Shown: positions 26,091 to 49,594, numbered from the stretch's first letter. The stretch is 64,000 nt of DNA from an uncultured Prevotella sp. (GCA_945869265.1 CAMBOI010000007.1:6985-70984), one strand, 5' to 3'. A program made the numbers and translations. The notes: generated by a model from the sequence alone, not told the origin.

Positions 26091-26107
26091 AATTTAGGAA
26101 TTAGAAA
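26080..26107. repeat. tandem heptamers TTA(A/G)(A/G)AA
   Basis: ttaaaaa ttagaat ttaggaa ttagaaa spans the stop codon (26088-26090) of the GLUG-type gene. Confidence 0.7.
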
Positions 26108-26145
26108 TGAGATTAAAATAATTCAGATATTCAATAATAATTATT

Positions 26146-31880: not shown

Positions 31881-31891
31881 ACTTTTTTTAA

Positions 31892-31926
31892 TTAAGAATT
31901 AAGAATTAAAAAATAAAAATTAGGAA
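31892..31926. repeat. five tandem heptamers TTA(A/G)(A/G)AA
   Basis: ttaagaa ttaagaa ttaaaaa ataaaaa ttaggaa lies between the NfeD stop (31920-31922) and the SPFH start (31880). Here it is in the opposite orientation relative to the genes. Confidence 0.8.
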
Positions 31927-33492: not shown

Positions 33493-33601
33493 ATCGTTGC
33501 TTTGTTTTTTCGGGTGCAAAGATATGATATATATGTTACAAACGTGTTACAAGAATGATAAATTCCTGTAACATCATATTATTATTAAACACAACTTGTT
33601 A

Positions 33602-34567
33602 TTATTCTCTGTGCCTCTGAGTCTCTGTGTTCAATAATAACTTTTCCTTTACCACCGAGGTATTGTTGCGAGATACGGGGATGGGTTTGTCGGTACCGAA
33701 TATCTGCAGCTGATAGGCAGAGTTGCGATTAGACATCGACACGACGAAGTTGAGATTGACGATGAAGGCCCGATGACATTGCACCATAAACGGTTCGCCG
33801 CCAATGCTCTCCATAATCTGCTTGAGCGTGATTCGCATCATCTTGTGGCGCACCTCGTCTGATTCCATATAACATATATTGGCATAGTTGGACATCGACT
33901 CCACATATATTATATTAGAGGGTGGAAGAATGAGTGTGCTGTTGCCTGTGGCTCCCACTAGGTGGCATTGGCGCACTTCCTCGCAGGGAGTATTGTCGAT
34001 TGTTTCATCCTCCTTTTCTGTCTGTTCGGCAATGGCTTTCTGCCTTTCCTCAAGCAAGGCATTGATGGTGCGCACCTCTTCGAGCTGATGGCGAAGATGC
34101 CAGTTGCGGTTGCGCACGTAGGTGCCGATATACAGGAATATGCATGTGGCTGAGACGTAGTATATGTAGTCAAAGAAATAATCAAAGTGAAATTGTCCGC
34201 CATGCCACCATGGTTTGATGGGATTATTGCAGAAGAAGAATCCCCCGAAGAGGGTGAGCGCGAGGGCGAGGATGGGGATATTGATTATATAGTTGACGAT
34301 AGAGTTGCGATGTACAGTGTTGAGCGGCAACTTGGGGTCCATAGGCATGCGGAGGATGTGGGCAGTGAATAAACCGATAATCATACTGACCACAGTGGTG
34401 ATGACACTCTGTGCGAGGAAGAACAGAGGGCGACCTTCGTGGATAGTCTCGACATTGAATGGCATGGTGAGCCATAACAAAAGGAATACGAATATGCCGG
34501 CATACACACTTTCGTGTATGATGCGGATGTTTATTGGTTCTTTTAATTGTCTTTTCATCATCGTCAT
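33602..34567 (-). CDS. membrane-anchored LytTR-domain DNA-binding protein (no receiver domain), copy 1
   Basis: About 4 TM helices, coiled segment HQLEEVRTINALLEERQ, an acidic linker, and a C-terminal LytTR domain (IIYVESMSNYANICYM...QCHRAFIVNLNFV). Start set to ATG 34567 (MTMMKRQ), 17 nt downstream of a -7 box. Confidence 0.85.
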   Translation of the reverse strand: MTMMKRQLKEPINIRIIHESVYAGIFVFLLLWLTMPFNVETIHEGRPLFFLAQSVITTVVSMIIGLFTAHILRMPMDPKLPLNTVHRNSIVNYIINIPILALALTLFGGFFFCNNPIKPWWHGGQFHFDYFFDYIYYVSATCIFLYIGTYVRNRNWHLRHQLEEVRTINALLEERQKAIAEQTEKEDETIDNTPCEEVRQCHLVGATGNSTLILPPSNIIYVESMSNYANICYMESDEVRHKMMRITLKQIMESIGGEPFMVQCHRAFIVNLNFVVSMSNRNSAYQLQIFGTDKPIPVSRNNTSVVKEKLLLNTETQRHRE

Positions 34568-34584
34568 AATTTCAAATTCGACTG

Positions 34585-34652
34585 CAAAGATACACCATTT
34601 ATCCCACATTTCCAAACATTTGGGACAAATGGTAGGGATATGTGACGAATGG
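34585..34652 (-). promoter_or_regulatory. LytTR1 promoter with upstream CCATTCGTCACATATCC / TGTCCCA boxes
   Basis: The minus strand reads ccattcgtcacatatcc-N8-tgtccca-aatgTTTGg-N19-TAtcTTTGcagtcg. It aligns without gaps to the cassettes at 40875-40948 and 48365-48438. Confidence 0.6.
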
Positions 34653-34717
34653 AAGACGTAATATCCCATTTCCTCTGCCTTATATCCCTTGCTATTGCAC
34701 AATCCAAATATCCACCG

Positions 34718-34725
34718 TAACTTTG
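34718..34725 (+). promoter_or_regulatory. -7 promoter box TAacTTTG
   Basis: ccgTAACTTTGcaacgg lies 17 nt upstream of ATG 34743. Confidence 0.5.
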
Positions 34726-34742
34726 CAACGGAAAATTTTTAA

Positions 34743-36941
34743 ATGAACAAAGATATGACGACATTGAAATTATGTTTGACGGCACTCGCCGCAATGTTGG
34801 GAGTGGCAACAGCCATGGCCCAGACGGAGAAGAAGGACACGGTTGACTACTCGCTCAACCTGCAGGAGTTTGTGGTGAAATCCACTGCTCCGCGAACAAA
34901 GATTAGAAACGGTGCTATGGTCACTCGCATTGTGGGTTCGCCATTGGAGTCGGCGGGCTCGGTTGAGGACATGCTCTCGCGTGTGCCCGGTATGATGCGC
35001 ATGGGTGGTCAGTTGCAGGTGATAGGAAAGGGTTCACCTATTTATTATATTAACGGACGAAAGGTGCAGGACCTTGAGGAACTGAAAAGATTGAGAAGTC
35101 AGGATATACGTGAGGTGGAGGTAGTCAACAGTCCGGGAGCTGCATACGATGCATCGGTGAACGCCGTGGTGAAGATAAAGACGCGTCGTCAGCAGGGTGA
35201 GGGGCTCAGTGGACGATTTGACGTGAGCGACGAACAGGCATTGAAGTCGGGCAACAACAACCTGACGTCCACCCTCAATCTAAACTATCGCCATGAGGGA
35301 CTTGATTTCTTTGGCGGTGTGACATTCCAAAACGACTATCTCGATGGTTATAGGTCACTGCTCGAGCAGAACACATACCTCAAGCAGAATACAAACTCAA
35401 TTGTTTCCCATACCCAAACCGGATATACCCAATCCGACCAGAAATTCTCGCGTATGTTCTTCAATGCGGGAGTCAACTGGCAATTTGACGATGACAACTT
35501 CATTGGAGTGAAGTTGGAGAGAGGTGTATGGTTGAAAAACCGCTACTGGTTTGAGATGGAGGAAGACGTGCTGCGCAATGGTATGAAGGAGGATTACCTG
35601 AAGTCGGAGAGCGACATCAAATACCAAAATCCAAATACCCTGCTCGTGAATGCATATTACAATGGAAAGATAGGCAAATGGGGTATTGACGCCAATGTGG
35701 ATTACTACTCGCAATGTGACAAGAACGACAATCATGTCAACGAGCAGGCAATGTCGGGTATGCGCACCGTGGAGTCGATGACCGAGAACAAGAGCCACCT
35801 CTTTGCTGCGCGACTTATTGCCGAACATCCTCTATGGACAGGCAAACTGCAGTTGGGTGGCGAATTGACCACCGTGTGTCGCGACAATGACTATCGCATC
35901 AGCGGTGTGGATAATATCTTCGACAGGATGTCGAAGGTGAACGAGCAGAACTATGCCGCTTTCTTCGAATATGGCATCATGATACCCAAGGCAGGAATGT
36001 TGACACTCGGGATGAGATATGAACATGTGGCATTCGACTTCGACGACAAGACCGACCCAATGCGCTCGGTGAAGAGAAATCATGACGATTTCTTCCCCTC
36101 GTTGTCTTTTGGTACGCGACTCGGAGACTTGCAGATGCAACTAAGCTATGGCATAAAGACCACACGCCCGTCCTACTATCAGTTGAGAAGCGAAATCGAC
36201 TATAGCAGCAAATACACACTGCAGACGGGTAATCCTCTGTTGGAAAACGAGATACGCCACACCCTCGACCTTTCGGGACGATGGAAATGGATAGCCTTCA
36301 ATGTCAACTACCTGCATATCAAGGATGCCATATACGACTGGACAACGCCATACGACGACAATGGAGTGGTGATGATAGGTATGGTTAACTTCGACCGTCC
36401 CATCGACGTGTTCTGTGCTTTTGTGAATGTATCGCCCACAGTGGGAGTGTGGACCACGAGCAATACAGTGGGAGTGCAGAAGCAGTGGCTCTCGTTTAAT
36501 CTCGACGACCCGCGCGAGGCAACAGACAAGCGCCATGTCACTTACGATAAACCGATGCTGATATTCAATAGCGACAATGCCTTCAGACTGAAACACGACT
36601 GGCAGTTGGAACTCAACTCGCAATTTTATAGCAAAGCTCATTATCGCAACGTGAAACTGATGCAGGCTTATTGGAATCTGACTGCCGCAGTGCAGAAGTC
36701 ATTCCTCAAGGACAAGTCGCTCGTAGTGCGCCTCTCGGTGGCCGACATCTTCAATACTGCAAAGCAAGATGCCCTTCTCGATCTCGGCAACTATACGCTG
36801 TTGAAGGGCGACGTGTTCGGAGAGGGACGAGGCAACTACAGTTTCCATCGAGTTTCACTCTCGGTGCGCTATGCCTTCAACGCCACCAAGAGCAAATATA
36901 AGGGCAAAGGAGCAGGACAGGATGTGATCAAGCGATTGTAG
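34743..36941 (+). CDS. TonB-dependent-receptor-like outer-membrane beta-barrel protein, copy 1
   Basis: Signal peptide, plug-like N-terminus (LQEFVVKS..., IYYINGRKVQDLEEL, VEVVNSPGAAYDAS), a long beta-barrel, and C-terminal tail FNATKSKYKGKGAG. Confidence 0.8.
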   Translation: MNKDMTTLKLCLTALAAMLGVATAMAQTEKKDTVDYSLNLQEFVVKSTAPRTKIRNGAMVTRIVGSPLESAGSVEDMLSRVPGMMRMGGQLQVIGKGSPIYYINGRKVQDLEELKRLRSQDIREVEVVNSPGAAYDASVNAVVKIKTRRQQGEGLSGRFDVSDEQALKSGNNNLTSTLNLNYRHEGLDFFGGVTFQNDYLDGYRSLLEQNTYLKQNTNSIVSHTQTGYTQSDQKFSRMFFNAGVNWQFDDDNFIGVKLERGVWLKNRYWFEMEEDVLRNGMKEDYLKSESDIKYQNPNTLLVNAYYNGKIGKWGIDANVDYYSQCDKNDNHVNEQAMSGMRTVESMTENKSHLFAARLIAEHPLWTGKLQLGGELTTVCRDNDYRISGVDNIFDRMSKVNEQNYAAFFEYGIMIPKAGMLTLGMRYEHVAFDFDDKTDPMRSVKRNHDDFFPSLSFGTRLGDLQMQLSYGIKTTRPSYYQLRSEIDYSSKYTLQTGNPLLENEIRHTLDLSGRWKWIAFNVNYLHIKDAIYDWTTPYDDNGVVMIGMVNFDRPIDVFCAFVNVSPTVGVWTTSNTVGVQKQWLSFNLDDPREATDKRHVTYDKPMLIFNSDNAFRLKHDWQLELNSQFYSKAHYRNVKLMQAYWNLTAAVQKSFLKDKSLVVRLSVADIFNTAKQDALLDLGNYTLLKGDVFGEGRGNYSFHRVSLSVRYAFNATKSKYKGKGAGQDVIKRL

Positions 36942-37830
36942 AGGGATTCTTAATCCTTTCCTTCACTTCGGCAGAATACTGCTTCGACACCAGTACGGTG
37001 TCATTGCCATACTGCATGACAAGTGCTATGCCACTGTTGCGACTCTCAACCTTTGCCACATGGCGCAGGTTGACGATGTAAGCACGGTGGCATTGCATTA
37101 TATATGACTGACGGCAGAGCAATTCCGACACATTCTTCATGCTCGTGCGAATAAGCATGTTGTTGGGCTTGTCGTCAATAATATAATATATGTTCACGTA
37201 GTTGCCCTCGGAGGTGGCAAATATCACTTGCGACGGACGCACATCAAGCGATTCCTTGGTGGCTCCGCTGATATTTATCACGGCATCGTCGTCGGCAGGA
37301 GTGGGAGAGATGGCGTCATTCGTCTGTGGTTCTGGCTGAGCCTCACGACGTTGTCTCTCCTGGAGCATACCATTGAGCAGTTGGGCTTCCTCGAGTTGAC
37401 GGATGAGATAGCGTTTTTTATACACACTGCGCCAATATACGTGTATCACTACCGTGGTGAAACAGTTGACCGCAATAACATAGCCGAGGGTTTGCCAACT
37501 GTAGTGGTTGTCAACTGTGGCGTTGTTGGCGAATGCATCAAGGAAGATGCACATTAATATCACGCTGAGAAATATATTGAGCGTCTCAAAGCGTATGTTG
37601 CGCTTGATGATATACTTGCTGCCGCGGGATATGTCGTTTGGCATACGGAATAGTTTCTCTACTGTCAGTTCGCTAATCAATACGCAAAACGCAATGATGA
37701 GCCCTAATCCTGCAAGCAGGGCCCATCTTATCCACCCGAAATGGTTGAGGCCGAAGGGTAGGAATACAGAGATGAAGAGAATGGCTATTAACGCACTCTG
37801 GAGTCTTTCTTTGATAATGGTTGTTTTCAT
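36928..37830 (-). CDS. membrane-anchored LytTR-domain DNA-binding protein (no receiver domain), copy 2
   Basis: Same architecture as copy 1 (4 TM, RQLEEAQLLNGMLQERQ, LytTR: VIFATSEGNYVNIYYI...QCHRAYIVNLRHV). Start set to ATG 37830 (MKTTIIKERL), 8 nt after a -7 box TActTTTG (minus strand, 37839-37846). The track start at 37860 is TTG. Confidence 0.8.
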   Translation of the reverse strand: MKTTIIKERLQSALIAILFISVFLPFGLNHFGWIRWALLAGLGLIIAFCVLISELTVEKLFRMPNDISRGSKYIIKRNIRFETLNIFLSVILMCIFLDAFANNATVDNHYSWQTLGYVIAVNCFTTVVIHVYWRSVYKKRYLIRQLEEAQLLNGMLQERQRREAQPEPQTNDAISPTPADDDAVINISGATKESLDVRPSQVIFATSEGNYVNIYYIIDDKPNNMLIRTSMKNVSELLCRQSYIMQCHRAYIVNLRHVAKVESRNSGIALVMQYGNDTVLVSKQYSAEVKERIKNPSTIA

Positions 37831-37903
37831 AAGCTCTGCAAAAGTACTAATTATTTTCAATATGTGGCTTTTTCTTTAGTTTTTTTAGCCAAAAATTTAT
37901 TCC

Positions 37904-37956
37904 ATTCGTCCCATTTTTTAGCTTTTCGTCACATTTTCAGCCTTTTCATCACATTT
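37904..37956 (+). promoter_or_regulatory. three direct repeats TTCGTCCCATTTT / TTCGTCACATTTT / TTCATCACATTTT with exact 20-bp phase
   Basis: Repeat starts are at 37904, 37924 and 37944, in the orientation of barrel gene 2, within the LytTR2/barrel2 divergent intergenic region. Confidence 0.6.
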
Positions 37957-38068
37957 TTGTCGATATATTGCAGCAAATCGTATTTTCTTAACGTCAAAAG
38001 GACGAAAACAAAATGAATATCGCATTTTTTGAGATTTATAAAGAATAAACATAATAATTGAAAAGAAT

Positions 38069-40222
38069 ATGAAAGCAAAAATGATGATTATGGCTGCAAT
38101 GATGATTATGATGACATCGGCAGCAGATGCACAGACAGAAAAGAAGTTGACCAACTTCAACGACACCACTTTCACTCTGAATGAGGTGACAGTGAAAAGC
38201 AGTTTGCCTAAATCGAGGGTGAAGGGCGACGCTATGCGCACTATTGTCAACGGCACTATCCTCGAGAAGGCTGGTAAGGCTACCGACGTGCTCAACCGCA
38301 TACCACAGCTCAAAGCCGACAAGGACGGTGGCGTGGAGGTGTTCGGACGTGGTGGTGCCGAGGTGTATATCAATGGCAGAAAGGTGCAGGACATGAAGGA
38401 ACTCACCCGCATCTCTTCGGAGCAGATCAAGAGTGTGGATGTGGTGCAGAATCCCGGCGCCCGCTATGCCGCAAGCGTGAAGGCTGTGGTTAGGATTCAG
38501 TTGAAGAAGGCTCAGGGCGAGGGATTCAGTTTCAGGGAGAATCTTGGCACTCAATATCAGTATGGTCCGGCCATCAGCAACAACCTCGACCTCAACTATC
38601 GTGTGGGCGGGCTCGACATCACGGGTTCGTTCTGGTGTGGCTCATACAACAGTTATAAGTCATATCAGAAAAATGACCTAACATATTATGCCGGTAATGA
38701 CTTATATGTGGGTCATAGCAATCAGAACATGAAGAACAAGTGGAGCGCATGGTCGCCACAGCTGCAGGTGAACTATATGTTTGACGATAATCACTCGATA
38801 GGTGCGTTCTACAAATACGACCGACATCCGAAGGATAGCTATGACGGATGGTTGCACACCGACACCTACGAGAACGGCAAATTCCTGGAGCGCTCGGAGA
38901 GCGACATCTTCAGACACACATCATCCAAGAAGCATATCTTCAATGCTTATTATAATGGTAAGGTGGGAAAACTCGGTATCGACTTCAATATCGACGGACT
39001 CTTCGATGATGTCAACGACCCCAACGGCACCACCGAGACTACTATCGACCCTGAAGGCAACAAGACGATGCGCACTGTGGATAATCTCACTCTCAGCGGC
39101 AATAACTTCTGGGCCACAAAGCTCATCTTCACCTATCCCGTGCTCAAGGGAAATCTCTCGGTGGGAGGCGAATATAGCCACAACAACCGTAAGGATGCCT
39201 ACTCATACGAGACAACGGAGACATTGCCCATGAATGCTACTGACAACAAAATCAAGGAGACGGCAACATCGGCTTTCGTGGAATATGGAAGACAGTTTGG
39301 ACGTGTCTTTGCACAGGTGGGATTGAGATATGAGAATATCTGCAACGACTACTACAACTTCGGCATAAAGGAGCAGGACGTGAGCCGGTCCTATGGCGAC
39401 TGGTTCCCCACGGCTGTAGTGGCTATGCCTATCGGAAAATGGCAGTTGAGCCTTTCCTACCGCAAGGACATCAAGCGACCGGCTTACGACCAACTCACAA
39501 GCTCTACCTTATATATTAATAAATACACTTATCAGACGGGTAATCCCTATCTGAAACCGACATATACGCACAATGTGGTGTTGAATGTGGCTTACAAGGC
39601 ATTTAGTGTGATGATCGACTATGCCCGCACGAAGGACGTGGTTACTCTGCTCACCGAACCTTATCCCGGAAGTGAAGACCCCCTGCTCAGTATCTTACAC
39701 CCCAAAAACTGCTCGGATGGATATGACAAACTCGTTGTCATGCCGTCGTATAAGCCAACTATCGGTAAGTGGCACCCAATGTGGTCGGCTGGGCTGGTGA
39801 TGCAGAACTACAAGACGTTGACTGCCAACGGTACGGAGAAGACGATGAACCATCCGTTTGTGCAGGTGCAGTGGAACAACGACATCGAATTGCCTAAGGG
39901 ATTCCGCGTTAATGCCTTTATGCAATATATCAGCAAAGGCGACTATGACAACTTCCGCATGTCAACCGAGGCGTTCAATGTATCTGTAGGTGTGCAGCGC
40001 GATTTCCATCTCAAGGCTCTCGGAACACTTACTGCCGACATCCGTTGCAATGACATCTTCAATACCAATAAGACTGGTACCACTGTATATGGCATACGCG
40101 AACTGACCATAGAAAACCGTGCCCGTAGAGTGTTCTCGCTCGACCTCACCTGGAAGTTCAATGAGGCTCGAAGCAAGTATAAGGGCACAGGAGCCGGTAA
40201 GAGTCAGAAAGCCAGAATGTAG
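38069..40222 (+). CDS. TonB-dependent-receptor-like outer-membrane beta-barrel protein, copy 2
   Basis: Paralog of 34743-36941: VYINGRKVQDMKEL, VDVVQNPGARYAAS, C-terminal FNEARSKYKGTGAG. Confidence 0.8.
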   Translation: MKAKMMIMAAMMIMMTSAADAQTEKKLTNFNDTTFTLNEVTVKSSLPKSRVKGDAMRTIVNGTILEKAGKATDVLNRIPQLKADKDGGVEVFGRGGAEVYINGRKVQDMKELTRISSEQIKSVDVVQNPGARYAASVKAVVRIQLKKAQGEGFSFRENLGTQYQYGPAISNNLDLNYRVGGLDITGSFWCGSYNSYKSYQKNDLTYYAGNDLYVGHSNQNMKNKWSAWSPQLQVNYMFDDNHSIGAFYKYDRHPKDSYDGWLHTDTYENGKFLERSESDIFRHTSSKKHIFNAYYNGKVGKLGIDFNIDGLFDDVNDPNGTTETTIDPEGNKTMRTVDNLTLSGNNFWATKLIFTYPVLKGNLSVGGEYSHNNRKDAYSYETTETLPMNATDNKIKETATSAFVEYGRQFGRVFAQVGLRYENICNDYYNFGIKEQDVSRSYGDWFPTAVVAMPIGKWQLSLSYRKDIKRPAYDQLTSSTLYINKYTYQTGNPYLKPTYTHNVVLNVAYKAFSVMIDYARTKDVVTLLTEPYPGSEDPLLSILHPKNCSDGYDKLVVMPSYKPTIGKWHPMWSAGLVMQNYKTLTANGTEKTMNHPFVQVQWNNDIELPKGFRVNAFMQYISKGDYDNFRMSTEAFNVSVGVQRDFHLKALGTLTADIRCNDIFNTNKTGTTVYGIRELTIENRARRVFSLDLTWKFNEARSKYKGTGAGKSQKARM

Positions 40223-40307
40223 TCAAGATAACATATTATTTTGTAGTAAATCGTTGACGGTTATCGTCTAATGAATAAAAAACTATTTGTTTCACATTTA
40301 AAACGAG

Positions 40308-40631
40308 ATGATTATGATAGTAACAACAACGCCCACTATTGAGGGGCATCCAATTAGAGAGTATAAGGGTTTGGTGACTGGTGAAACCATCATTGGCGCC
40401 AACTTCGTGAAGGACTTCTTTGCCGGCATCCGCGATATCGTAGGCGGACGCAGTGGCTCATACGAGAGCGTATTGCGCGAGGCCAAAGACATAGCATTGC
40501 GCGAGATGCAGGAGCGTGCACAGATGATGGGAGCCAATGCTGTCGTAGGTGTCGATCTCGACTATGAGGCCCTTGGTGCCAATGGTTCGATGCTGATGGT
40601 TACGGCAAGCGGTACTGCAGTAGTGATATAA
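40308..40631 (+). CDS. YbjQ/UPF0145 family protein
   Basis: 107 aa: [24 protein letters not shown]...GGRSGSYE... Confidence 0.8.
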
Positions 40632-40669
40632 CAGCTTATGTCCCCAAGATTTTTATTAGCCATAATACT

Positions 40670-40861
40670 ATGATACGCAATAATGTCACATTATACTGCA
40701 TTATCTCTATTCTGCTTTTCTCAGGAGTGTTCTTCCTGATAAAGTCGATGATGAGCGCGTCGAGTGAGAACAATTGGGCTTTGAGCCTTGCCCTCTTCTC
40801 GACCGCTCTTGCCAACTTCCTCATCCTGTATGTCAATAAGAAGAGGAAAGACAATTCATAG
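40670..40861 (+). CDS. small hypothetical membrane protein (63 aa, 2 TM)
   Basis: Two hydrophobic helices. No family recognised. Coding status uncertain. Confidence 0.3.
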   Translation: MIRNNVTLYCIISILLFSGVFFLIKSMMSASSENNWALSLALFSTALANFLILYVNKKRKDNS

Positions 40862-40862
40862 C

Positions 40863-40948
40863 CATGCTCGTCGTTTCGTCACATATCCTTGCTTTCTGTC
40901 CCAGTTATTTGGTATATTGTCATATTTACACTACCTTTGCAGTCGCAA
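40863..40948 (+). promoter_or_regulatory. promoter cassette R, copy 1
   Basis: 40875-40948 matches 48365-48438 at 72 of 74 positions. It contains TTTCGTCACATATCC, TGTCCCA, a -33 TTTG and a -7 TAccTTTG (40932-39). ATG 40963 lies 23 nt downstream. Confidence 0.7.
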
Positions 40949-40962
40949 AATCAATTTTTATT

Positions 40963-41979
40963 ATGATGAAGAAAGTTTTATATGTATTGCTGCCGCAGTT
41001 TGCGGAACATGAGTTGCCTTATCTCACCCAACCATTGCGCTCAGATGCCATGGCAATGAAAGAGGATCCGAAGTATGAGAACAAGATTGTGGCTGAATCA
41101 ATGGATCCCGTTGAGGCTATCAGCGGTTTCCGCATACTGCCCGATTATACCTTTAATAATATTCCCGACGATTATGCAGCACTAGTGCTCATCGGAGGAT
41201 ACAGTTGGAAGAGTGAGGCAGCTGAGCGAGTAAAGCCTCTTGTTGCCGATGCTATCAGCAAGGGGCGCATAGTCGGTGCCATCTGCAATGCCGCCTCATG
41301 GATGGCGAGCAAGGGATTCCTCAACGATGTCCGCCACACTGGCAATGGCATTGAGCAGTTGCAGCTGTGGGGTGGGGAGACATACACCAATGCCGCCGGC
41401 TATGTCAACGCACAGGCAGTGAGCGACAAGAATATCGTTACGGCAAATGGCAGTGCCAGCCTTGAGTTTGCATGCGAGATACTCACCTTGCTCAAAAACG
41501 ACGAGCCAAAGGAAATACAGATGTACAAGACGTTCTACAAAACGGGGCTCGTGGAGTTTGCTAAGATGATGTCGCAGGCGAAACCGCGTTTCACGTTCAA
41601 CACCATTGGCCTCTTTACCACCGACAATGCCAAGATGGTGGCTTTCTATCGCGACATCTTCGGATTTGAGACTGAGTGGAATGGAGTAGAGCCAAATGTA
41701 GAGATGACACTTGGCACATCACGTATCATCATGTTCCCCCGCGACGCATTCGAGCAGATGACATCTCGTGAGTATGCCTATCCCAACGGCACCAATGGCA
41801 CTTTGGAACTGTCCTTCGATGTCCCAACGTTTGCCGATGTTGACAAGGAGTATGACCGTGCCGTAAGCATGGGAGCAAAGCCAATATTCGCTCCTACGAC
41901 AGAGCCATGGGGACAACGCACCTGCTATGTGGCTGACCCGGAAGGCAACTTGATAGAGATATCGTCGTTTATTAAATAA
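40963..41979 (+). CDS. DJ-1/PfpI-family domain fused to VOC (glyoxalase/bleomycin-resistance) domain
   Basis: The N-terminal half has ALVLIGG...GRIVGAICNAASWMA (DJ-1/PfpI nucleophile-elbow Cys context). The C-terminal half has FTFNTIGLFT...EPWGQRTCYVADPEGNLIEI (VOC fold). Start set to ATG 40963. Confidence 0.7.
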   Translation: MMKKVLYVLLPQFAEHELPYLTQPLRSDAMAMKEDPKYENKIVAESMDPVEAISGFRILPDYTFNNIPDDYAALVLIGGYSWKSEAAERVKPLVADAISKGRIVGAICNAASWMASKGFLNDVRHTGNGIEQLQLWGGETYTNAAGYVNAQAVSDKNIVTANGSASLEFACEILTLLKNDEPKEIQMYKTFYKTGLVEFAKMMSQAKPRFTFNTIGLFTTDNAKMVAFYRDIFGFETEWNGVEPNVEMTLGTSRIIMFPRDAFEQMTSREYAYPNGTNGTLELSFDVPTFADVDKEYDRAVSMGAKPIFAPTTEPWGQRTCYVADPEGNLIEISSFIK

Positions 41980-41988
41980 AAGAGAAAT

Positions 41989-42483
41989 ATGAAATACCAA
42001 GAAGTAATTGACAATATTAAAACGGTTATGAATAGGGAGATTCCAATGTTGCTCTCCCTCTCAGAAGAGCAAGTGAGCCTGAAAAGGAACACCCAAAACC
42101 GTACGGTGAAGATGCTCGTGGGACATCTGATAGACTCGGCATCCAACAACCACCAGCGTATGGTGCGCCTGCAGTATGCCCCTTGTTGCGGACACTCGAT
42201 GCCAAATACAGAGATGGGTATGCTCGTCTTCCCTGACTACACTCAAGACAACGACCTCTGGATAGCTTTACAGGACTATCAGCATGAGGATTGGCATACG
42301 CTGGTGATGCTGCTGAAATATTACAATGAGCACATCTGCCATCTTATACGCTCCGTGGATGAGAAGAAACTCAACAACTACTGGATTGACTACGAGGGTT
42401 GTAGGGTTACGCTCGACGCCATGATACGCGGATATATCAATCACCTGAATCTACACTTTGGGCAGATACACGAATTATTATAG
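41989..42483 (+). CDS. DinB-superfamily protein
   Basis: 164 aa, helical, with LVGHLIDSASNNHQRM and C-terminal HLNLHFGQI, typical of DinB-like metal-binding four-helix bundles. Confidence 0.6.
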   Translation: MKYQEVIDNIKTVMNREIPMLLSLSEEQVSLKRNTQNRTVKMLVGHLIDSASNNHQRMVRLQYAPCCGHSMPNTEMGMLVFPDYTQDNDLWIALQDYQHEDWHTLVMLLKYYNEHICHLIRSVDEKKLNNYWIDYEGCRVTLDAMIRGYINHLNLHFGQIHELL

Positions 42484-42511
42484 GATTATTGTATTTTCTT
42501 TAGTAAATATT

Positions 42512-43522
42512 ATGTCGCGACTGAATTATCTTGATAATCTGAAGTTGGCATTGACCTTCTTGGTGATATTACATCATGCGGGACAAGCGTATGGTGACGG
42601 TGGCGAGTGGGGATATACTCCTTCAAATCCTGCGGAGGTGATGCCTTGGATATGGCATTTCTTCTCTACCAATGCCGCTTTTTTCATGGGATTGTATTTC
42701 TTCATTTCCGGGTATTTTATACCAGGCAGTTACGACCGACAGGGTTTTGGCACTTTTGTCAGGAAGAAAATTCTTCGTCTTGGAGTACCATTGTTGTTGA
42801 TGGGCGGTCTCTTGACATCCGCCACAGGCAAAGTGGAGATAGCCCATATGTGGTTTGTGGAAAGTCTTCTGATATTCAGCTTCTTCTACGCCGTGGTCAG
42901 GAAAAGATGCCCGGCAATATCTAAAGACTGCGACTCACGACCGACACTGACAGGATTGTTTATTGCTGCATTAGTGATGGGCATCGGCAGTTTTTTCATT
43001 CGTCAGGTGAGTCCACAAGATAATTGGATTAGTCTTAGTTTATGGATATTTGAGCCAGCTCATTATCTTCAGTATGTCATGATGTTTGTTTTGGGCATAC
43101 TTGCCTATAGGTTTTGCTGGCTCGACAAGATGACAAATACAACTGGTGTCGTGTCGTTGGTCATTGGTGGCTTGTTGGCTATAGGGAACTATGTCCGGCA
43201 AGACGGGGCGTGGAATGATTTTGTTTGGCAATGGTTTGGAATCTATGAGTCGCTGATGTGCGTTTTCATCAGTTTTGGCTTGTTATGGCTATTTAGGGAC
43301 AAAATCAATATGTGCAACAAAACGCTCTCTTGGCTCTCAGCTCAGAGCTATGGAGCATATATAGTTCATTTGCCGTTGATGATTTGTATCCAAAATATGT
43401 TTGATGGTGTATGGATGGGAGCCTTTGGCAAGTTCATGTTCATAGGTGTTGTCACAACTCTTTTGTCATTCACCTTGACATGGTTGCTTCGACTGCTGCC
43501 GGGAGTGAAGAGAATTATTTGA
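42512..43522 (+). CDS. acyltransferase family 3 integral membrane protein
   Basis: MSRLNYLDNLKLALTFLVILHHAG followed by about 10 TM helices. Start set to ATG 42512. Confidence 0.75.
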   Translation: MSRLNYLDNLKLALTFLVILHHAGQAYGDGGEWGYTPSNPAEVMPWIWHFFSTNAAFFMGLYFFISGYFIPGSYDRQGFGTFVRKKILRLGVPLLLMGGLLTSATGKVEIAHMWFVESLLIFSFFYAVVRKRCPAISKDCDSRPTLTGLFIAALVMGIGSFFIRQVSPQDNWISLSLWIFEPAHYLQYVMMFVLGILAYRFCWLDKMTNTTGVVSLVIGGLLAIGNYVRQDGAWNDFVWQWFGIYESLMCVFISFGLLWLFRDKINMCNKTLSWLSAQSYGAYIVHLPLMICIQNMFDGVWMGAFGKFMFIGVVTTLLSFTLTWLLRLLPGVKRII

Positions 43523-43813
43523 ATGATGATTGTGGTTGTTTATTACATACGTACAGCCTTAGGACTTGGTTCCTTGGTTTGGGATTTCTCATGGCTGAAA
43601 CTCTTCTCGTCGTTGACACCTGCCCTTGTGGCGTGGTGCTATTTGCCAGGAGTAACGAGAAATGTACTCACCAAAGCGTCGAATTCATAAAAGAATGGGA
43701 TTTTCACAGGTCGCTCATTTCCATAGATGTGGGTGGAAGTTTGCCGAATGGTGTGATACCGTTTGGATGGAACAGTTAATTGATGAATAGTGATACTAAT
43801 TAATAGAAGACTT

Positions 43814-44149
43814 ATGAAACAGCTAATCGCTTGTTGTGGCCTTGACTGCGAGAAATGCGATGCACGCATAGCCACTCAGAATGACGATAACCGTTTGCGA
43901 GAGAAAGTGGCAAAAGAATGGGGAGAGATGAACCAGATGGAATTTCAGCCTGAATGGATTAATTGCATGGGTTGCCGTACAGAAGGGTGTAAGACCTTTT
44001 ATTGCAGTGACATGTGCAAAATCCGCAAATGCGTATTGCAAAAAGGATACAATACCTGTGGCGACTGTTGCGAGATGCAAACATGCAGCATTTTGGGCGA
44101 ACTGGCGACGAATGCCCCCGAGGTTTATGAGAATCTAAAGGGCGAGTGA
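43814..44149 (+). CDS. Cys-rich DUF3795-like protein
   Basis: MKQLIACCGLDCEKCDA...CMGCR...CKIRKC...CGDCCEMQTC. Start set to ATG 43814. Confidence 0.6.
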   Translation: MKQLIACCGLDCEKCDARIATQNDDNRLREKVAKEWGEMNQMEFQPEWINCMGCRTEGCKTFYCSDMCKIRKCVLQKGYNTCGDCCEMQTCSILGELATNAPEVYENLKGE

Positions 44150-44217
44150 TATTTTTATTTAGACAAATGACAAGAGTAATTATTGGATTAGTATTACAGA
44201 AAGGATTTAGCAAATAA

Positions 44218-44760
44218 TTATGGGTGGTATGTTTCTATCTTACATGTATGCTGCTTCGTCTCTTTGTCGTAGTTGATGCCCACGAGGAGGATGTCGCCGG
44301 TGTAGTCGGCTATCTTTTCGGGATAATCCTTGCGCTTAATTTGGTCGATGGCAGTGTCGGCGGAATGATTGAACTTCAATTCTATGACGAGTGCTGGCTT
44401 GCTGACGTTGCGACGAGGAATCATCACGAGGTCGGCATAGCCTTTGCCCGTAGCGTAATCACGGAGAATAACATACCAGGGGGCAAGGAAGGCAGGGGCA
44501 ATCATTGAGTACTCGCAGAAGTTGTTCAATGCCGACTCGGTGTTGTATTTCTTGATTGGCAGAATGCCGGTGAGATAGGCTCCGGCAAAGACAGTGTTTG
44601 AACCTGAGCCCTTGAAGAGGCGGCGAAGCAGGTCAACATATGATGTAGTGATGAATTCGTCTGTTCCCATCTCGCGCAGTATCAATGATGACTTGTCAAC
44701 ATACTCGTGAGCCACGATGTCACGGAAATCGTTATTGCCTTTATTGATGTACATACCCAT
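44218..44760 (-). pseudogene. internally deleted AAA-ATPase-like / PD-(D/E)XK (PDDEXK_9) family gene
   Basis: It keeps the family N-terminus (YINKGNNDFRDIVAHEYVDKSSLI) and the C-terminal nuclease module (GYADLVMIPR...PALVIELKFN...AIDQIKRKDY). The P-loop region of a few hundred residues is missing, giving 181 aa versus the >500 aa usual for this family (from memory). Confidence 0.55.
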
Positions 44761-44885
44761 AGTTTTGCGACTGTTGCGGGAGTGGTAAGCCTGCAATTTG
44801 GTGGCAAAGATACAAATAAAAAATGAGAATCATTAAAACGAATGCGAATATCTTCTCTTTTTTGTATTATTTCACTTATATTTAT

Positions 44886-44923
44886 CATGTTGTGTCATGC
44901 CATTCGTCACATATCCTTGCTTT
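44886..44923 (+). repeat. truncated (5' 38 bp) copy of promoter cassette R
   Basis: catgttgtgtcatgccattcgtcacatatccttgcttt is identical to 48348-48385. Similarity stops abruptly at 44924. Confidence 0.9.
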
Positions 44924-44926
44924 TGA

Positions 44927-45110
44927 AGTAAACCCAACCATATACTCTTTTAAATCAGATATAAAAAATCCATCGATGTGTATTTCTTTGCATACAGCAG
45001 CTCCGACTTCATTATTCCAAAGAAGTTCTCCATTACGGAATTGTCAAGACGTACCTGTTCCTCTCATCCGCAAGTACATTGTTGCGGATTTCACCCTTCA
45101 AACCAAGCGA
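44927..45110 (-). mobile_element. degraded 3' fragment of an IS3-family transposase gene
   Basis: The minus frame over 44950-45060 reads EQVRLDNSVMENFFGIMKSELLYAKKYTSMDFLYLI*, the conserved DN.V.E.FFG.LK.E region of the IS3 integrase core. Flanking frames are broken by frameshifts/stops, and no inverted repeats were identified. Confidence 0.65.
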
Positions 45111-45317
45111 AAAGCTAATAAATCATAAAAGTTGCCGAAAGGTTTGGCTGTTTCATTTTTATTTCTTACTTTTACACCGACATTGGCAAGTGGCCAACTC
45201 GTTTGGGCTTCTGTCCCAATAGAGTTTGGATCCGCATTTGTCTCTATTTTTCCGTAGAAAGGAATACAACAGATGTTTCTCGTACGGCCACTATCTTCAT
45301 ACATCAATTTTAACACT

Positions 45318-46757
45318 ATGAGACATATAACCAAACTACAATGGGGAATCATTGGAATGCTGGGCATCTTGCTTCCATATTCAATGGGAATAGCAGCGGA
45401 AACAGTTGCGGATTCCTCCCTGAAACCACGGATTGTCGTACTGACGGATATTGCACCGACTGACGTTGAACCCGATGACATGGAATCAATGGTCCGCCTG
45501 CTGGCCCATGCTGACCTTTATGAAATAGAGGGACTGATTGCGACAGGAGGATGGAACATCTGCGGGAGAACTTATCCGGACGAATGGATGGGAAACATGC
45601 AGAAAGTAATTAATGCTTACGACGAGGATCTACCGAATCTAATGAAACGATCCGGACAAAAGGGTTTCCTGCCAGTAGAAAAGGAAGCCGGCAAACAAAC
45701 GTTGGGTTATTGGCCAAGTGCTGCCTATTTGCGTAGCAGGACTGCATTTGGCAGCAGAGATTTAGGCGTAACCAAACTTGGAGAGGAGAATAGCTCACAA
45801 GGTAGCAAAATGATTATCGACCTAGTTGACGAAAAGGACGACCGTCCCTTATGGGTCTTGGTTTGGGGCGGTGCAAATACACTGGCTCAAGCGATATGGA
45901 CTGTCAGGCAGAATCGAAGCGAAACGGAAGTTATAAAGTTTCTGAATAAGTTGTGTGTTTATACAATTACAGACCAAGATGTATGCGGAGGTCCCCCTGT
46001 GGATTATGCCTTCAGTTCTCATCAATGGATCCGCAAGACTTGCGGCAAGGATATCCGCTTTTTCTGGGACGAAAGCGCTTGGATCGTGCAGAACTACATA
46101 GGAAGCCAGAATTGGAACGAATACGCAACTCATATACAAAATCACGGGAATCTAGGGAAAATATATCCGAAAAACAAATACGGAGTGGAAGGCGACACTC
46201 CTTCTTTCCTACATGTAACCCCAAATGGATTAAACGATCCGACCGTATGTAGCCAGACAGGTTGGGGTGGCTATTTCCGATGGGGACTGTCACCAGACAG
46301 TCTGACAACATGCTACACAAATGCAGATCCGGCAGTCAGATACATATCGGAGAAATATGAAAAATACTTCTATCCCGCAATATTCGCCAACTTCATAGCA
46401 CGTATGGATTGGGCTGCATACGGCAAAGGAAACCGTAACCCGATAGTCATCGTAAACGGTAAAAAGGGATTGAGTCCGATTATAATTGAACCAGAAACAG
46501 AAGAGGAACTCCAGTTAAACGCTTCAGAATCTGCGGACCCGGATAAAGATACACTGACTTTCCATTGGTGGATATTGCCGGAAGCGGGTACTTACACCTC
46601 AACGGTAAGTATCAGAGAGGCAGACAAAGCTAATGCCTTTCTACGTATCCCCCAGGATGCGGCAGGAAAAGAATTGCATATAATCTGTGAAGTGACAGAC
46701 AATGGGACTCCGGCACTGACTAGTTACAGAAGGGTCATCATCCGCCCAAAACGATGA
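45318..46757 (+). CDS. DUF1593-like secreted protein (nucleoside-hydrolase-like fold + Ig-like C-terminus)
   Basis: Signal peptide, then RIVVLTDIAPTDVEPDDMESMVRLLAHADLYEIEGLIATGGWN, typical of DUF1593. Start set to ATG 45318. Codon usage differs from neighbours by eye. Confidence 0.65.
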   Translation: MRHITKLQWGIIGMLGILLPYSMGIAAETVADSSLKPRIVVLTDIAPTDVEPDDMESMVRLLAHADLYEIEGLIATGGWNICGRTYPDEWMGNMQKVINAYDEDLPNLMKRSGQKGFLPVEKEAGKQTLGYWPSAAYLRSRTAFGSRDLGVTKLGEENSSQGSKMIIDLVDEKDDRPLWVLVWGGANTLAQAIWTVRQNRSETEVIKFLNKLCVYTITDQDVCGGPPVDYAFSSHQWIRKTCGKDIRFFWDESAWIVQNYIGSQNWNEYATHIQNHGNLGKIYPKNKYGVEGDTPSFLHVTPNGLNDPTVCSQTGWGGYFRWGLSPDSLTTCYTNADPAVRYISEKYEKYFYPAIFANFIARMDWAAYGKGNRNPIVIVNGKKGLSPIIIEPETEEELQLNASESADPDKDTLTFHWWILPEAGTYTSTVSIREADKANAFLRIPQDAAGKELHIICEVTDNGTPALTSYRRVIIRPKR

Positions 46758-46801
46758 CAGGCCAATAAACGAACATATTACCATTTTAAACCAAATATAC
46801 A

Positions 46802-48301
46802 ATGAAAAAGAAAAACATTCAGACCCCCGTTTTATCAATAGTCATTGCTGCATGTATGATATCTCACCAGCAAAATGCGCGGGCCGGAGAAAATCCGTCC
46901 CTGCAAAATGATTCCGTGCCTTATGTAACCATGCCGGACGTTTCCCCTAAACTCACCACAGGATATGGAAATCCCCTGCTGGATTTTATGTTTACAGCGG
47001 ATCCAACTGCAGTAGAATATAAAGGCAGACTTTATGTGTACGCAACAAACGATCAGCAACAATATGAGACAATAGGCGGTTACGGAAAAAACTCCTACGA
47101 ATACATCAAATCTCTGGTGATGATGTCTACCGATGACATGACAAACTGGACCTATCACGGAATTATTAAAACAGACAGCATCGCCCCATGGATAAAAACA
47201 TCATGGGCACCGTCAGTCACAAAACGTGAGGAAGCGGACGGCAAGACTCACTTCTACCTCTATTTCTCCAATAGCGGGGATGGAACCGGAGTGCTGACAT
47301 CCACATCCCCCATAGGACCGTGGTCAAGCCCGCTGAATCATAGTTTGGTAGATACAAACACTCCCGGCATAGCAGGAGAATGCAAAGCCGCTTTCGATCC
47401 GGGTGTAGTCATCGATGACAAAGGAAAAGGTTGGCTGACAGTAGGCGGAGGATGTGCTCGCATTATGCGTTTGGGAAAAGACATGATTAGTGTGGATGGC
47501 CCGATAACCCCCATCAAGGCTCCCCATCATTTCGAAGCTAACGAATTAAACTACATCAACGACACATACGTTTATACTTATAACATAGATTGGCAAGATT
47601 TTAGCGACTGGCCTCTCCCGACAGAGAAACCAACCATCTGTTGCATGAGTTACATGACTAGCAAGACTCCGCAGGTAAGCGAAAGTTGGCAATACCAGCA
47701 CAACTATATGAAAAACCCTGGAGAATATGGATTTGACTTCAGCAACAATCATACACATTTGCACAAATACCGCGGGAAATGGTATGTAATCTATCACACA
47801 ATGAGTTTGCAACATAGTTTCAATACAACAGCTGGTTTTCGTAATGTTTGTGTCGATGAAATACAAATTGACGAAAATACTGTGAACATCCACATGGGTA
47901 ATCAGACTCTGAAAGGCGTAAAACAGATACAGCCTATGAATCCGTTCATCATCCAGCAGGCCGAAACCACAGCAGCCACACAAGGCGTCAAGTTCACAAA
48001 TGGAAAAAGCATCGGGGACATGTATGCCGTTACCGTTCCCAACAAGACTGGCATCATTGCTGTCAGAGGTGTGGAATTCAACAAAGTACCTTCCAGTCTG
48101 GAAATTAAGGCATCCGGAAACGGAATCATAGAAGTCCGCCGGGATAGGCCGGACGGAGAAGTCATAGCTTCAATCAAAGTCGGTACCCCGCAAATGAAAC
48201 TCATAGAATCCCAACTTCAAAAGAATATGACAGGCACAATGGACCTCTGTTTTATCCTGAAAGGAAACAATATCACATTCGACGAATGGCAGTTCAAATG
48301 A
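46802..48301 (+). CDS. glycoside hydrolase family 43 with C-terminal carbohydrate-binding module
   Basis: Signal peptide. GNPLLDFMFTADPTAVEYKGRLYVYATND (GH43 N-terminal catalytic Asp context), WAPSV, and a CBM6-like C-terminal ~130 aa. Confidence 0.8.
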   Translation: MKKKNIQTPVLSIVIAACMISHQQNARAGENPSLQNDSVPYVTMPDVSPKLTTGYGNPLLDFMFTADPTAVEYKGRLYVYATNDQQQYETIGGYGKNSYEYIKSLVMMSTDDMTNWTYHGIIKTDSIAPWIKTSWAPSVTKREEADGKTHFYLYFSNSGDGTGVLTSTSPIGPWSSPLNHSLVDTNTPGIAGECKAAFDPGVVIDDKGKGWLTVGGGCARIMRLGKDMISVDGPITPIKAPHHFEANELNYINDTYVYTYNIDWQDFSDWPLPTEKPTICCMSYMTSKTPQVSESWQYQHNYMKNPGEYGFDFSNNHTHLHKYRGKWYVIYHTMSLQHSFNTTAGFRNVCVDEIQIDENTVNIHMGNQTLKGVKQIQPMNPFIIQQAETTAATQGVKFTNGKSIGDMYAVTVPNKTGIIAVRGVEFNKVPSSLEIKASGNGIIEVRRDRPDGEVIASIKVGTPQMKLIESQLQKNMTGTMDLCFILKGNNITFDEWQFK

Positions 48302-48347
48302 TACCTTCCAGATGACAAGGAGGGTGCATTTAAATTTGCATGTTACA

Positions 48348-48438
48348 CATGTTGTGTCATGCCATTCGTCACATATCCTTGCTTTCTGTCCCAATTATTT
48401 GGTATATTATCATATTTACACTACCTTTGCAGTCGCAA
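48348..48438 (+). promoter_or_regulatory. promoter cassette R, copy 2 (full length)
   Basis: CCATTCGTCACATATCC (48362-78), TGTCCCA (48387-93), -33 TTTG (48398-401), -7 TAccTTTG (48422-29). ATG 48451 lies 21 nt downstream. Confidence 0.7.
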
Positions 48439-48450
48439 TAATAATATTGA

Positions 48451-48969
48451 ATGATGAAGACAGAAAGAATAACCCTTCGTCCTTGGCTTGACACTGATGC
48501 CAAGGCTTTGTATAAATACGCTCGCGACCCGGAGGTGGGGCCGCGAGCAGGTTGGCCTCCTCATTTTTCTGAGGAGGAGAGCCTGGAAATAATTCGCACC
48601 GTGTTTAACAATCCCACCACATGGGCTATCGTATGGAATGAGACTGGCGAGGCAATAGGAGCCATGGGCTACGGTCCGTCGTGCGAATGCTCTCTCCCTG
48701 CTCGGGAAGGTGAACCCACGGTGGGCTATTGGGTGGGCAAACCGTATTGGGACAAGGGTATCTGCACAGAGGCTCTTCGACTGATGATAACGCATATCCG
48801 CAATACAACTGACATCAAGTCTCTCATCAGCGGACATTTCATCAGCAACCCAGCTTCGGGACGAGTGATGGAGAAGTGTGGATTCATGCCAACTGGCGAA
48901 ACTGCCTTTGACAATAAACTCTATCAAGGTGCTGACAAACCGATAAGGGTAATGAGATTGACTTTTTAA
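48451..48969 (+). CDS. GNAT family N-acetyltransferase (RimJ/RimL-like)
   Basis: TERITLRPWLDTDAKALYKYARDPEVG...GYWVGKPYWDKGICTEA. Confidence 0.8.
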   Translation: MMKTERITLRPWLDTDAKALYKYARDPEVGPRAGWPPHFSEEESLEIIRTVFNNPTTWAIVWNETGEAIGAMGYGPSCECSLPAREGEPTVGYWVGKPYWDKGICTEALRLMITHIRNTTDIKSLISGHFISNPASGRVMEKCGFMPTGETAFDNKLYQGADKPIRVMRLTF

Positions 48970-49081
48970 TAAAAAAACAACATGAGTACTATGGTTTCAT
49001 ATGGCTTCCAAAGGACATAGAATGGTACAAGGGCAATATCTTGGCAATATTCGATGAAATAATCTAATTTTAATAAATGAA

Positions 49082-49594
49082 ATGACGATAATAATAATTA
49101 TTATTCTTATGTTTTGTTCATTGTCAACTAATGCACAAAACAATTATCCCAAGGCAGCAACTCCGGAAATGGAGTTTGTCATGCAACTTAATGTCACACT
49201 TGGCGAAGCCTATACAGTGGGCGAGACACAGAGCGGGAAACGCCATGTTATACCCATTACAGGTGGCACATTTGAGGGACCGCTCCTTCACGGCACTATC
49301 ATCAATGGTGGAGCAGACTACCAGTTGGTCAGTGCTGATGGAAAACGCACAACACTTGAGGCCATATATTCAATTATGACCCATGATGGGGTGTATATCC
49401 ACGTGCGCAATCAAGGCATTGTATATTCCGGCAAGGATGCTTCGGGCAATGACTCTTTTTATTTCAAGGCAGCACCAAAGTTTGAGGCTCCTGTCGACAG
49501 CAAGTATTCATGGCTCAACAACGCCATATATGTCTGCGCCCCATCATTCGGAGCACCTGGTACCATTACGCTTGATGTATGGAGAGTAAAATAA
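49082..49594 (+). CDS. DUF3237-like beta-barrel protein with signal peptide
   Basis: HVIPITGGTFEGPLLHGTIINGGADYQLVSADG resembles the DUF3237/UPF0311 family. Confidence 0.6.
   Translation: MTIIIIIILMFCSLSTNAQNNYPKAATPEMEFVMQLNVTLGEAYTVGETQSGKRHVIPITGGTFEGPLLHGTIINGGADYQLVSADGKRTTLEAIYSIMTHDGVYIHVRNQGIVYSGKDASGNDSFYFKAAPKFEAPVDSKYSWLNNAIYVCAPSFGAPGTITLDVWRVK

Follow-up and report, generated by a model that had tools for sequence, protein, structure and literature searches.

In a 64,000-nucleotide stretch of DNA from an uncultured Prevotella sp. (GCA_945869265.1, CAMBOI010000007.1:6985-70984), hereafter called the window, boxes of the type TTYRTCMCA, phased 20-21 bp apart, are found at five promoters, all of them between 34.6 and 48.4 kb, and at no other place. 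Their architecture is conserved in relatives, and they are associated exclusively with promoters and with the loci of two membrane regulators that carry a LytTR DNA-binding domain, LytTR1 and LytTR2. Judged from sequence, the boxes are probably operators of these regulators, and promoters that occur as reused cassettes would be wired to the same circuit. A LytTR operator of this kind had been proposed before, in a prediction made from the sequence of the window alone. At the level of sequence and comparison the proposal stood, given the linkage to LytTR loci, the phasing, the position before the -33 element and the recurrence on promoters of relatives, and several of its details had to be corrected.

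When the window was searched with the pattern TTCRTCMCAT-N10-TTCRTCMCAT, allowing up to three mismatches, five matches were found against 0.11 expected, and 0 of 100 shuffled sequences reached five. All five are sites that the original prediction had named; the sequence elements listed there are all present, a few at slightly shifted coordinates, and its gene calls agree with Pfam. The 17-mer CCATTCGTCACATATCC, searched at up to three mismatches, gave four matches in the window against 0.20 expected. It is complete (17/17) at 48362-48378, which is the recurrence that had been claimed for the cassette at 48348-48438, and at 44900-44916, and matches at 15/17 positions at 40872-40888. An Rfam search of 33.0-50.5 kb found no known RNA elements.

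One arrangement of boxes lies between LytTR1 (33602..34567, minus strand; 321 residues; Pfam LytTR, PF04397, 5e-13) and the divergent gene barrel1 (34743..36941, plus strand), which encodes an OMP_b-brl_3/TonB-dependent-receptor-like outer-membrane beta-barrel (Pfam 2.8e-52). On the minus strand, from 34652 down to 34579, the LytTR1 promoter reads CCATTCGTCACATATCC-N8-TGTCCCA-AATG-TTTGG-N19-TATCTTTGCAGTCG, as had been claimed, except that the span ends at 34579 and not at 34585. Its core (34579..34616) consists of a -33 element TTTGG (34616-34612), a 19-nt spacer and the -7 element TATCTTTGCAGTCG (34592-34579), and it is preceded by a predicted operator (34618..34652) with a distal unit CCATTCGTCACAT (34652-34640), a middle unit ATATCCCTAC (34641-34632) and a proximal unit ATTTGTCCCAAAT (34630-34618). 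The cores of this operator are 20 bp apart, and the operator is kept in 15 orthologous intergenic regions. The inventory of boxes made earlier was correct for those it named but had missed an inverted pair on the plus strand in front of the divergent barrel1 promoter. This second predicted operator (34659..34692) comprises a distal unit TAATATCCCATTT (34659-34671) and a proximal unit TTATATCCCTTGC (34680-34692), the cores of which are 21 bp apart, and it is followed by the barrel1 core promoter (34692..34731; -33 CTATTGCAC, 34692-34700; -7 TAACTTTGCAACGG, 34718-34731). Since the barrel1 -33 TTG is 5 nt away from the proximal core, both divergent promoters share one architecture. Also overlooked was a fifth conserved box, the inverted GTGGGATAAATGG (34607-34595, minus strand) inside the -33/-7 spacer of LytTR1, which is kept in orthologous promoters; that it provides autorepression is speculation. 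A porin-like gene downstream of LytTR1 (32476-33519) was considered as an operon partner and rejected, as a TAnnTTTG promoter of its own precedes it and no more than 2 of 46 loci have it again (L002 and L035; retrieved loci and contigs are numbered with the prefix L).

These 46 loci were retrieved by means of the LytTR protein alone, without use of the motif. The whole intergenic layout is kept in LytTR1 orthologues that are 47-95% identical, with the pattern CCATTCGTC[AC]C...T.CCCT.C..TT.GTCCCAAA before the -33 TTG. The same intergenic regions hold the inverted units GGGATATA and TGGGATAT, 21 bp apart, as well as a TGGGATAAA unit between -33 and -7; on the opposite strand the inverted units read ATATCCCAT-N-TATATCCCTT and precede the -33 TTG of the divergently transcribed barrel1 by 5 nt. 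In an alignment of 16 orthologues the boxes stand out as conserved blocks amid variable spacers. Pairs of GTCMCA at 19-22 bp occur ~20 times in the 46 loci, always in a TTCGTC context, against a chance estimate of <1, and nearly all of them lie in the intergenic region beside the LytTR gene, the others being on cassette-like promoters. A composite pattern (core, 13-16 nt, core, 2-8 nt, TTG, 17-24 nt, TAnnTTYS) matched 48 times in the 633 kb of window and fetched loci, compared to 0 matches in the reversed sequence and 0, 0 and 0 in shuffled sequences. In all 48 the end of the proximal core is 5 nt away from the -33 TTG and 28 nt ahead of the TA of the -7 element, and this last distance does not vary between promoters on the LytTR side, on the barrel side and in cassettes. 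The phase amounts to 20 bp for the LytTR side, the cassettes and a triple repeat before a second barrel gene, and to 21-22 bp for the barrel side. In ~20 loci, including some with barrels only ~45% identical (L022-L024), the barrel-side pair was found; the barrel1-side pair is the most widely conserved of the predicted targets. In 29 fetched loci, the LytTR gene has a barrel homologue upstream of it in divergent orientation. LytTR/barrel is the only gene pair found beside boxes across loci, the porin-like gene (2 loci) being the sole other neighbour tracked, and LytTR is therefore the sole DNA-binding candidate seen encoded there.

The second regulator and barrel are paralogues of the first. 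LytTR2 (36928..37830, minus strand; Pfam LytTR, 6e-14) is 300 residues long from the ATG at 37830, a start inferred from orthologues, is 27% identical to LytTR1, and has a -7 box TACTTTTGCAGAGC at 37846-37833 (minus strand). Barrel2 (38069..40222, plus strand; Pfam 5e-61) is 31% identical to barrel1. Between the two genes, three direct repeats, TTCGTCCCATTTT, TTCGTCACATTTT and TTCATCACATTTT (37905..37957, plus strand), point at barrel2. Their steps of exactly 20 bp are as predicted, with starts at 37905, 37925 and 37945, one base later than the 37904, 37924 and 37944 given originally. The third repeat abuts a -33-like element TTTTTG, and a weak -7 element TATTTTCT, which would complete the barrel2 promoter, ends at 37988. 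Two-repeat versions of this barrel2-side array are present in the LytTR2 orthologue loci L002 and L035. The latter (400-2000, from an uncultured Prevotella metagenome-assembled genome) is a decayed locus, in which the LytTR2 orthologue is intact, barrel1 and LytTR1 survive as C-terminal fragments only, and barrel2 as fragments.

The LytTR DNA-binding domain was detected by Pfam (PF04397) in both paralogues. According to hydropathy and an AlphaFold model, LytTR1 begins with four N-terminal transmembrane helices, which a long linker helix joins to the LytTR domain at the C-terminus (helices 11-33, 46-70, 82-113 and 129-190; beta fold 201-298). With this model, Foldseek matched the LytTR domains of 3d6w, ComE and AgrA, with TM-scores on the target of 0.73-0.78 for 3d6w and AgrA and ~0.34 for full-length ComE. 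DNA-binding domain and transmembrane segments thus belong to a single polypeptide, which lacks a receiver or kinase domain, as in the described class of transmembrane transcription regulators (PMC10269533), and in view of the order of four helices, long helix and LytTR fold, LytTR1 and LytTR2 are predicted to be one-component, inner-membrane-anchored LytTR regulators. The N-terminal four-helix domain had no Pfam match. The source is a pig-gut Prevotella, with Prevotella sp. P5-50 (LytTR1 95% identical) as its closest species representative. Look-ups of the exact LytTR1 and DUF3237 proteins returned no record, and in the literature searched we found no paper that characterises this LytTR/barrel family.

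How such a circuit would work can be outlined as follows. Each target promoter would present two or three direct-repeat half-sites, 20-21 bp centre to centre, to two or three LytTR protomers, and the protomer nearest to the promoter would adjoin -33 and recruit the Bacteroidota RNA polymerase. We infer that the LytTR domains bind the boxes and, because the proximal core is positioned 5 nt before -33 and 28 nt before -7, that binding activates rather than represses; the assignment of paralogues to promoters, and the signal, are likewise inferred. The ancestral targets would be the regulator's own gene and above all the divergent outer-membrane barrel gene, which would be switched on. The repeats at LytTR1's own promoter are present and conserved, which makes positive autoregulation a candidate only.

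Away from the LytTR loci, the boxes are found on a promoter cassette that is present twice in full. Copy 1 (40872..40958, plus strand) has box 1 TTCGTCACAT at 40875-40884, box 2 TTTCTGTCCCAG up to 40904, -33 TTTGG at 40908-40912 and -7 TACCTTTGCAGTCG at 40932-40945. In copy 2 (48348..48448, plus strand), box 1 is at 48365-48374, box 2 extends to 48394, -33 TTTGG is at 48398-48402 and -7 TACCTTTGCAGTCG at 48422-48435. Direct comparison of 40875-40948 with 48365-48438 showed 2 differences in 74 positions, in line with the 72 of 74 matches reported earlier, and the repeat extends to 84 nt (40875-40958 and 48365-48448) at 93% identity. The spacing in the cassette had been called identical to that of the LytTR1 promoter, and indeed an ungapped alignment of the two runs from box 1 to the -7 element, with 53 of 74 positions identical. 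Behind copy 1, all on the plus strand and supported by Pfam matches and by gene models of sister contigs, follow a DJ-1/PfpI-VOC fusion (40963-41979), DinB_2 (41989-42483), Acyl_transf_3 (~42512-43522) and DUF3795 (43814-44149). Behind copy 2, likewise on the plus strand and with Pfam matches, are GNAT (48451-48969), DUF3237 (49082-49594) and an NADPH-dependent FMN reductase/flavodoxin-like gene (49611-50201). A gene of the YbjQ_1 family (40308..40631, plus strand; Pfam 8e-41) lies upstream of copy 1, and in relatives (L019, L007 and L070) its operon is driven by a box-bearing promoter.

The 84-nt cassette thus has the appearance of a reused promoter, and similar promoters were found in relatives, related pig-gut contigs among them. 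In Prevotella sp. P5-92 (L019), one drives a small membrane protein, YbjQ and a GNAT that is orthologous to that of the window, and in L007 one located beside the LytTR2 orthologue drives a small membrane protein, YbjQ and a DinB-like protein. There are several subtypes of the -33/-7 spacer, each preceding unrelated genes: in the window, type A stands before DJ-1/VOC and GNAT; a different type is found before DUF3795 (L064) and DUF3237 (L066). Metagenomes were scanned with the boxes only (TTCGTCACA-N6-TGCTTTCTGTCCCA), and in 9 of 9 contigs the boxes lay just upstream of -33/-7 elements and a gene on the same strand, with the reservation that the pattern demanded exact boxes, so that box conservation in these nine matches is by construction. 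The genes behind them were DUF3795; DJ-1/VOC-acyltransferase-DUF3795; DUF3237-FMN reductase; DUF3237; YbjQ-GNAT-...-DJ-1/VOC; GNAT-...; and one unknown. In this lineage, the module of boxes and promoter would have been copied before DJ-1/VOC, DinB, acyltransferase, DUF3795, GNAT, DUF3237, FMN reductase and YbjQ, and such reuse would wire a changing set of small accessory genes into the LytTR circuit. The regulon of detoxification genes that had been predicted is in so far corroborated that the same gene families stand behind boxes in relatives, but no boxes were found at five more distant DJ-1/VOC homologues (58-85% identical; 3 kb of flank on each side) that had been looked up by protein and not by motif, which implies that cassette and detoxification genes came together recently and in the lineage of the window only. 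The barrel and LytTR promoters would accordingly represent old, conserved targets, and the cassette regulon a young, lineage-restricted one.

Two of these contexts show DJ-1/VOC in other surroundings. In metagenome contig L074 (46-5660) it apparently forms an operon with an OMP_b-brl_3 barrel gene that precedes it, with GNAT further on, a Zn_ribbon_2 protein in place of the LytTR gene upstream, and no boxes. In L081/L082 only a 73-residue LytTR fragment (4168-4389, minus strand) is left beside a DJ-1/VOC gene with a boxless promoter, with a small protein-YbjQ pair nearby; regulator and operator may have been lost jointly. Contigs assembled from pig-gut metatranscriptomes, which break at the repeated cassette and mix strains, contain strain variants with breakpoints at the cassette, from 40910/48400 to 43814 and from 48403 to 49060. 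They indicate strains without DinB or GNAT (joints 41979-42507 and 48403-49060), and in other contigs YbjQ, from its start (40311), follows on the end of GNAT (48967); this is an island of accessory genes with a high turnover. In 2 of 4 metatranscriptomes the contig depth of the YbjQ region (40268-40865) was 10-300 times that of barrel2, which could reflect either a promoter of its own or reads of other strains piling up on a conserved gene.

Several observations weigh against the proposed operators, the circularity of the metagenome scan and the boxless DJ-1/VOC homologues among them. The two full cassettes, at 93-97% identity, are evidently recent duplicates and not independently maintained sites, and therefore do not count as independent evidence within this genome. 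The barrel2 promoter has a different distance between box and -33 (3 nt versus 5 nt) and a weak -7 element. Finally, two paralogues with an overall identity of 27% would need very similar half-sites.

An explanation that takes up some of these points, and that we regard as unlikely, is that the cassette is simply a strong duplicated promoter, in which the boxes are unused passengers inherited from an ancestral LytTR2-adjacent promoter, so that there is no real detoxification regulon. The 93-100% identity of the cassette copies, which includes positions without evident function, would fit this, as would the placing of each spacer subtype before unrelated genes, the strain breakpoints at the cassette, the lack of boxes at more distant DJ-1/VOC homologues and the fact that one cassette copy is a dead relic. 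This relic (44886..44923, plus strand) is the 38-bp half copy noted in the original prediction. It is identical to 48348-48385 (38/38) and has the same layout in all sampled strains, but it retains only the upstream flank and box 1, without box 2, -33 or -7, and is a truncated remnant of a cassette that is intact in L064, where a cassette with the same upstream flank drives DUF3795. However, between subtypes about half of the spacer differs, yet the two boxes are retained and stay at exactly 28 nt from -7. Moreover, the cassette-like promoters of L007 and L019 carry the full, extended box 2 (TGCTTTCTGTCCCA) although the search that found them required only 6-nt cores, and YbjQ, GNAT, DinB, DUF3795 and DUF3237 recur behind boxes in varied arrangements.

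It is less likely still that a different, unlinked transcription factor or a sigma-associated factor binds the boxes and that the proximity of LytTR genes is incidental. The TCCCA/TCACA cores are short, and the LytTR1 and LytTR2 domains are divergent while the boxes are alike. Against this, boxes and LytTR genes co-occur in ~20 loci that were retrieved by protein, down to ~35-40% protein identity and in either orientation; no other DNA-binding domain was found in the Pfam-scanned genes beside the box sites of the window, a survey confined to the window; and the direct-repeat layout and 20-21 bp phase match LytTR sites, with an AlgR-like half-site. Strain variants that join or skip genes exactly at the module, and the variable gene order behind modules, might point to a primary role of the module in recombination or mobility instead of regulation, with gene cassettes shuffled as by an integron or shufflon. 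This idea is very improbable and was rejected as the main explanation, since no integrase or recombinase was seen among the Pfam-scanned open reading frames of ~31-51.5 kb, ordinary homologous recombination between repeats of 40-100 nt accounts for the variants, neither terminal inverted repeats nor clear target duplications were found, and the module always keeps a complete -33/-7 promoter oriented with the downstream gene.

Around the cassettes, some further features were recorded. An isolated TTCTGTCCCAAT (45209..45220, plus strand), which matches cassette box 2 at 12 of 12 positions, lies 285 nt after the relic and upstream of a Sde182-like gene, and may be the other part of an interrupted cassette. 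The 285 nt between 44923 and 45209 were considered as a miniature transposon, a possibility that was discarded in view of the lack of terminal inverted repeats, a weak GCTT(T) duplication and a uniform layout in the sampled strains. The Sde182-like protein most likely starts at 45318, with a signal peptide, and not at 45273, and upstream of its gene (45244-45249; L047 and L048) strains are polymorphic, some contigs having ~130 extra bp between ATTTGTCTC and TTTCCGTAGAAAGG. A 192-residue open reading frame with PDDEXK_9 only (44218-44796, minus strand) is the C-terminal remnant of a 523-residue AAA-ATPase_like plus PDDEXK_9 gene that is intact in the sister pig-gut contigs L054-L056, and it keeps a TAnnTTTG promoter-like element at ~44805. 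The segment 40223-40307 was examined as a 5' untranslated remnant of the small membrane-protein gene of L007 and L019 and dismissed, as the alignment was unsupportive and the window has no such open reading frame. Elsewhere in the window, an 87-nt direct repeat (26004-26090 and 28372-28458; 93% identical, 2.4 kb apart) ends in a stop codon and probably marks the 3' ends of two paralogous genes. AT-rich tracts of the GAATTAAGAATTAG type are located at 26073-26111, 31885-31923 and 60364-60402, at least two of which (26073 and 31885) adjoin gene ends, and a similar tract is present in L035.

Transmembrane LytTR regulators are common in gut Bacteroidota, and the locus described here offers a concrete predicted operator, with a half-site consensus, a phase and a distance to -33/-7. 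It combines a conserved primary target, the outer-membrane barrel, with a candidate stress and detoxification regulon in a dominant pig-gut Prevotella, and it shows plainly, in a natural setting, how the reuse of promoters can rewire regulation, genes driven by the cassette being gained and lost at the strain level. The box module could also seed inducible promoters for Prevotella and Bacteroides.

With regard to known systems, canonical LytTR sites are paired direct repeats of ~9 bp with a spacing of 10-13 bp, just upstream of -35 (PMC11347149; PMC6193735). The sites described here have the features of such operators, namely a LytTR domain, repeats 19-22 bp apart and a position directly upstream of -33, from which barrel2 deviates (3 nt). 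They share with the operators of AgrA, ComE, HdrR/BrsR and AlgR the imperfect direct repeats of ~9-11 bp, about two helical turns apart (20-21 bp here), and the location a few bp upstream of -35/-33, the regulator's own promoter included (PMC11347149; PMC6193735). In contrast to these systems, the regulators are integral membrane proteins without a receiver domain, the -33/-7 promoters are those of Bacteroidota, the divergent outer-membrane barrel has a second, inverted pair, and a conserved box lies between -33 and -7. The distal box CCATTCGTC matches the AlgR consensus half-site CCGTTCGTC (PMC4787818) at 8 of 9 positions, and at 9 of 9 in L016, L017 and L064. This resemblance of the half-site CC[A/G]TTCGTC to that of AlgR (8-9 of 9 positions) fits LytTR-type recognition; it is a resemblance only, and membership in the AlgR regulon type was rejected, as the regulators here have no receiver domain.

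LytTR regulatory systems (LRS) switch on their own operons by way of repeats located 4-11 bp upstream of -35 (PMC6193735), and Bacteroides LytTR regulators with several transmembrane segments and NfeD/DUF2154 membrane partners have already been noted, with predicted 11-bp repeats, an 11-bp spacer and a position 11 bp upstream of a TGTA-N19-TATCTTTG promoter (Zou et al. 2018, PMC6193735). The several transmembrane segments are common to these LRS-like operons and the locus described here. However, no co-transcribed inhibitor of the DUF2154/NfeD type was seen here, the partner being a divergent OMP_b-brl_3 barrel, the repeat there is TCCGGTATTCA and differs from the sequence found here, and the operator here is spread on reused cassettes. 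The locus is therefore not an LRS in the sense of Zou et al. 2018, which consists of a soluble regulator and a co-transcribed transmembrane inhibitor, since the regulator itself has four transmembrane helices and its neighbour is the divergent barrel. CoxC and RcoM are sensor-coupled LytTR one-component regulators. In CoxC a membrane-embedded N-terminal domain is likewise fused to a C-terminal LytTR domain, and operators of three repeats at 18-21 bp, like that of barrel2, have been described for RcoM and the membrane-bound CoxC (PMC11347149). CoxC differs in that its membrane domain is an MHYT domain, instead of the four helices found here, which are not MHYT, and in that its operator overlaps -35 and CoxC represses, whereas most boxes here are upstream of -33.

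It is conceivable, though doubtful, that the conserved pair of outer-membrane barrel and inner-membrane LytTR regulator forms an undescribed trans-envelope signalling device of Bacteroidales, the regulon of which is, in this Prevotella lineage, built and reshuffled by a copied operator-promoter cassette before accessory xenobiotic-stress genes. If true, this would be functionally analogous to the systems of TonB-dependent transducer, anti-sigma factor and extracytoplasmic function (ECF) sigma factor, but would end in a membrane-tethered LytTR activator. The cassette itself resembles the putative mobile promoters defined by at least 80% identity over at least 50 nt before non-paralogous genes, in a screen of positions -150 to -50 (Nijveen, Matus-Garcia and van Passel 2012, PMC3575422). 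Here, 84 nt are 93% identical upstream of the non-homologous DJ-1/VOC and GNAT genes, and such reuse occurs both within and between related genomes; the repeat, at ~-88 to -5, has ~38 nt within the published range and thus agrees with that definition in spirit rather than to the letter. What distinguishes it from these mobile promoters is a recognisable operator tied to a neighbouring regulator family, by which copying of the promoter would have a predictable regulatory consequence.

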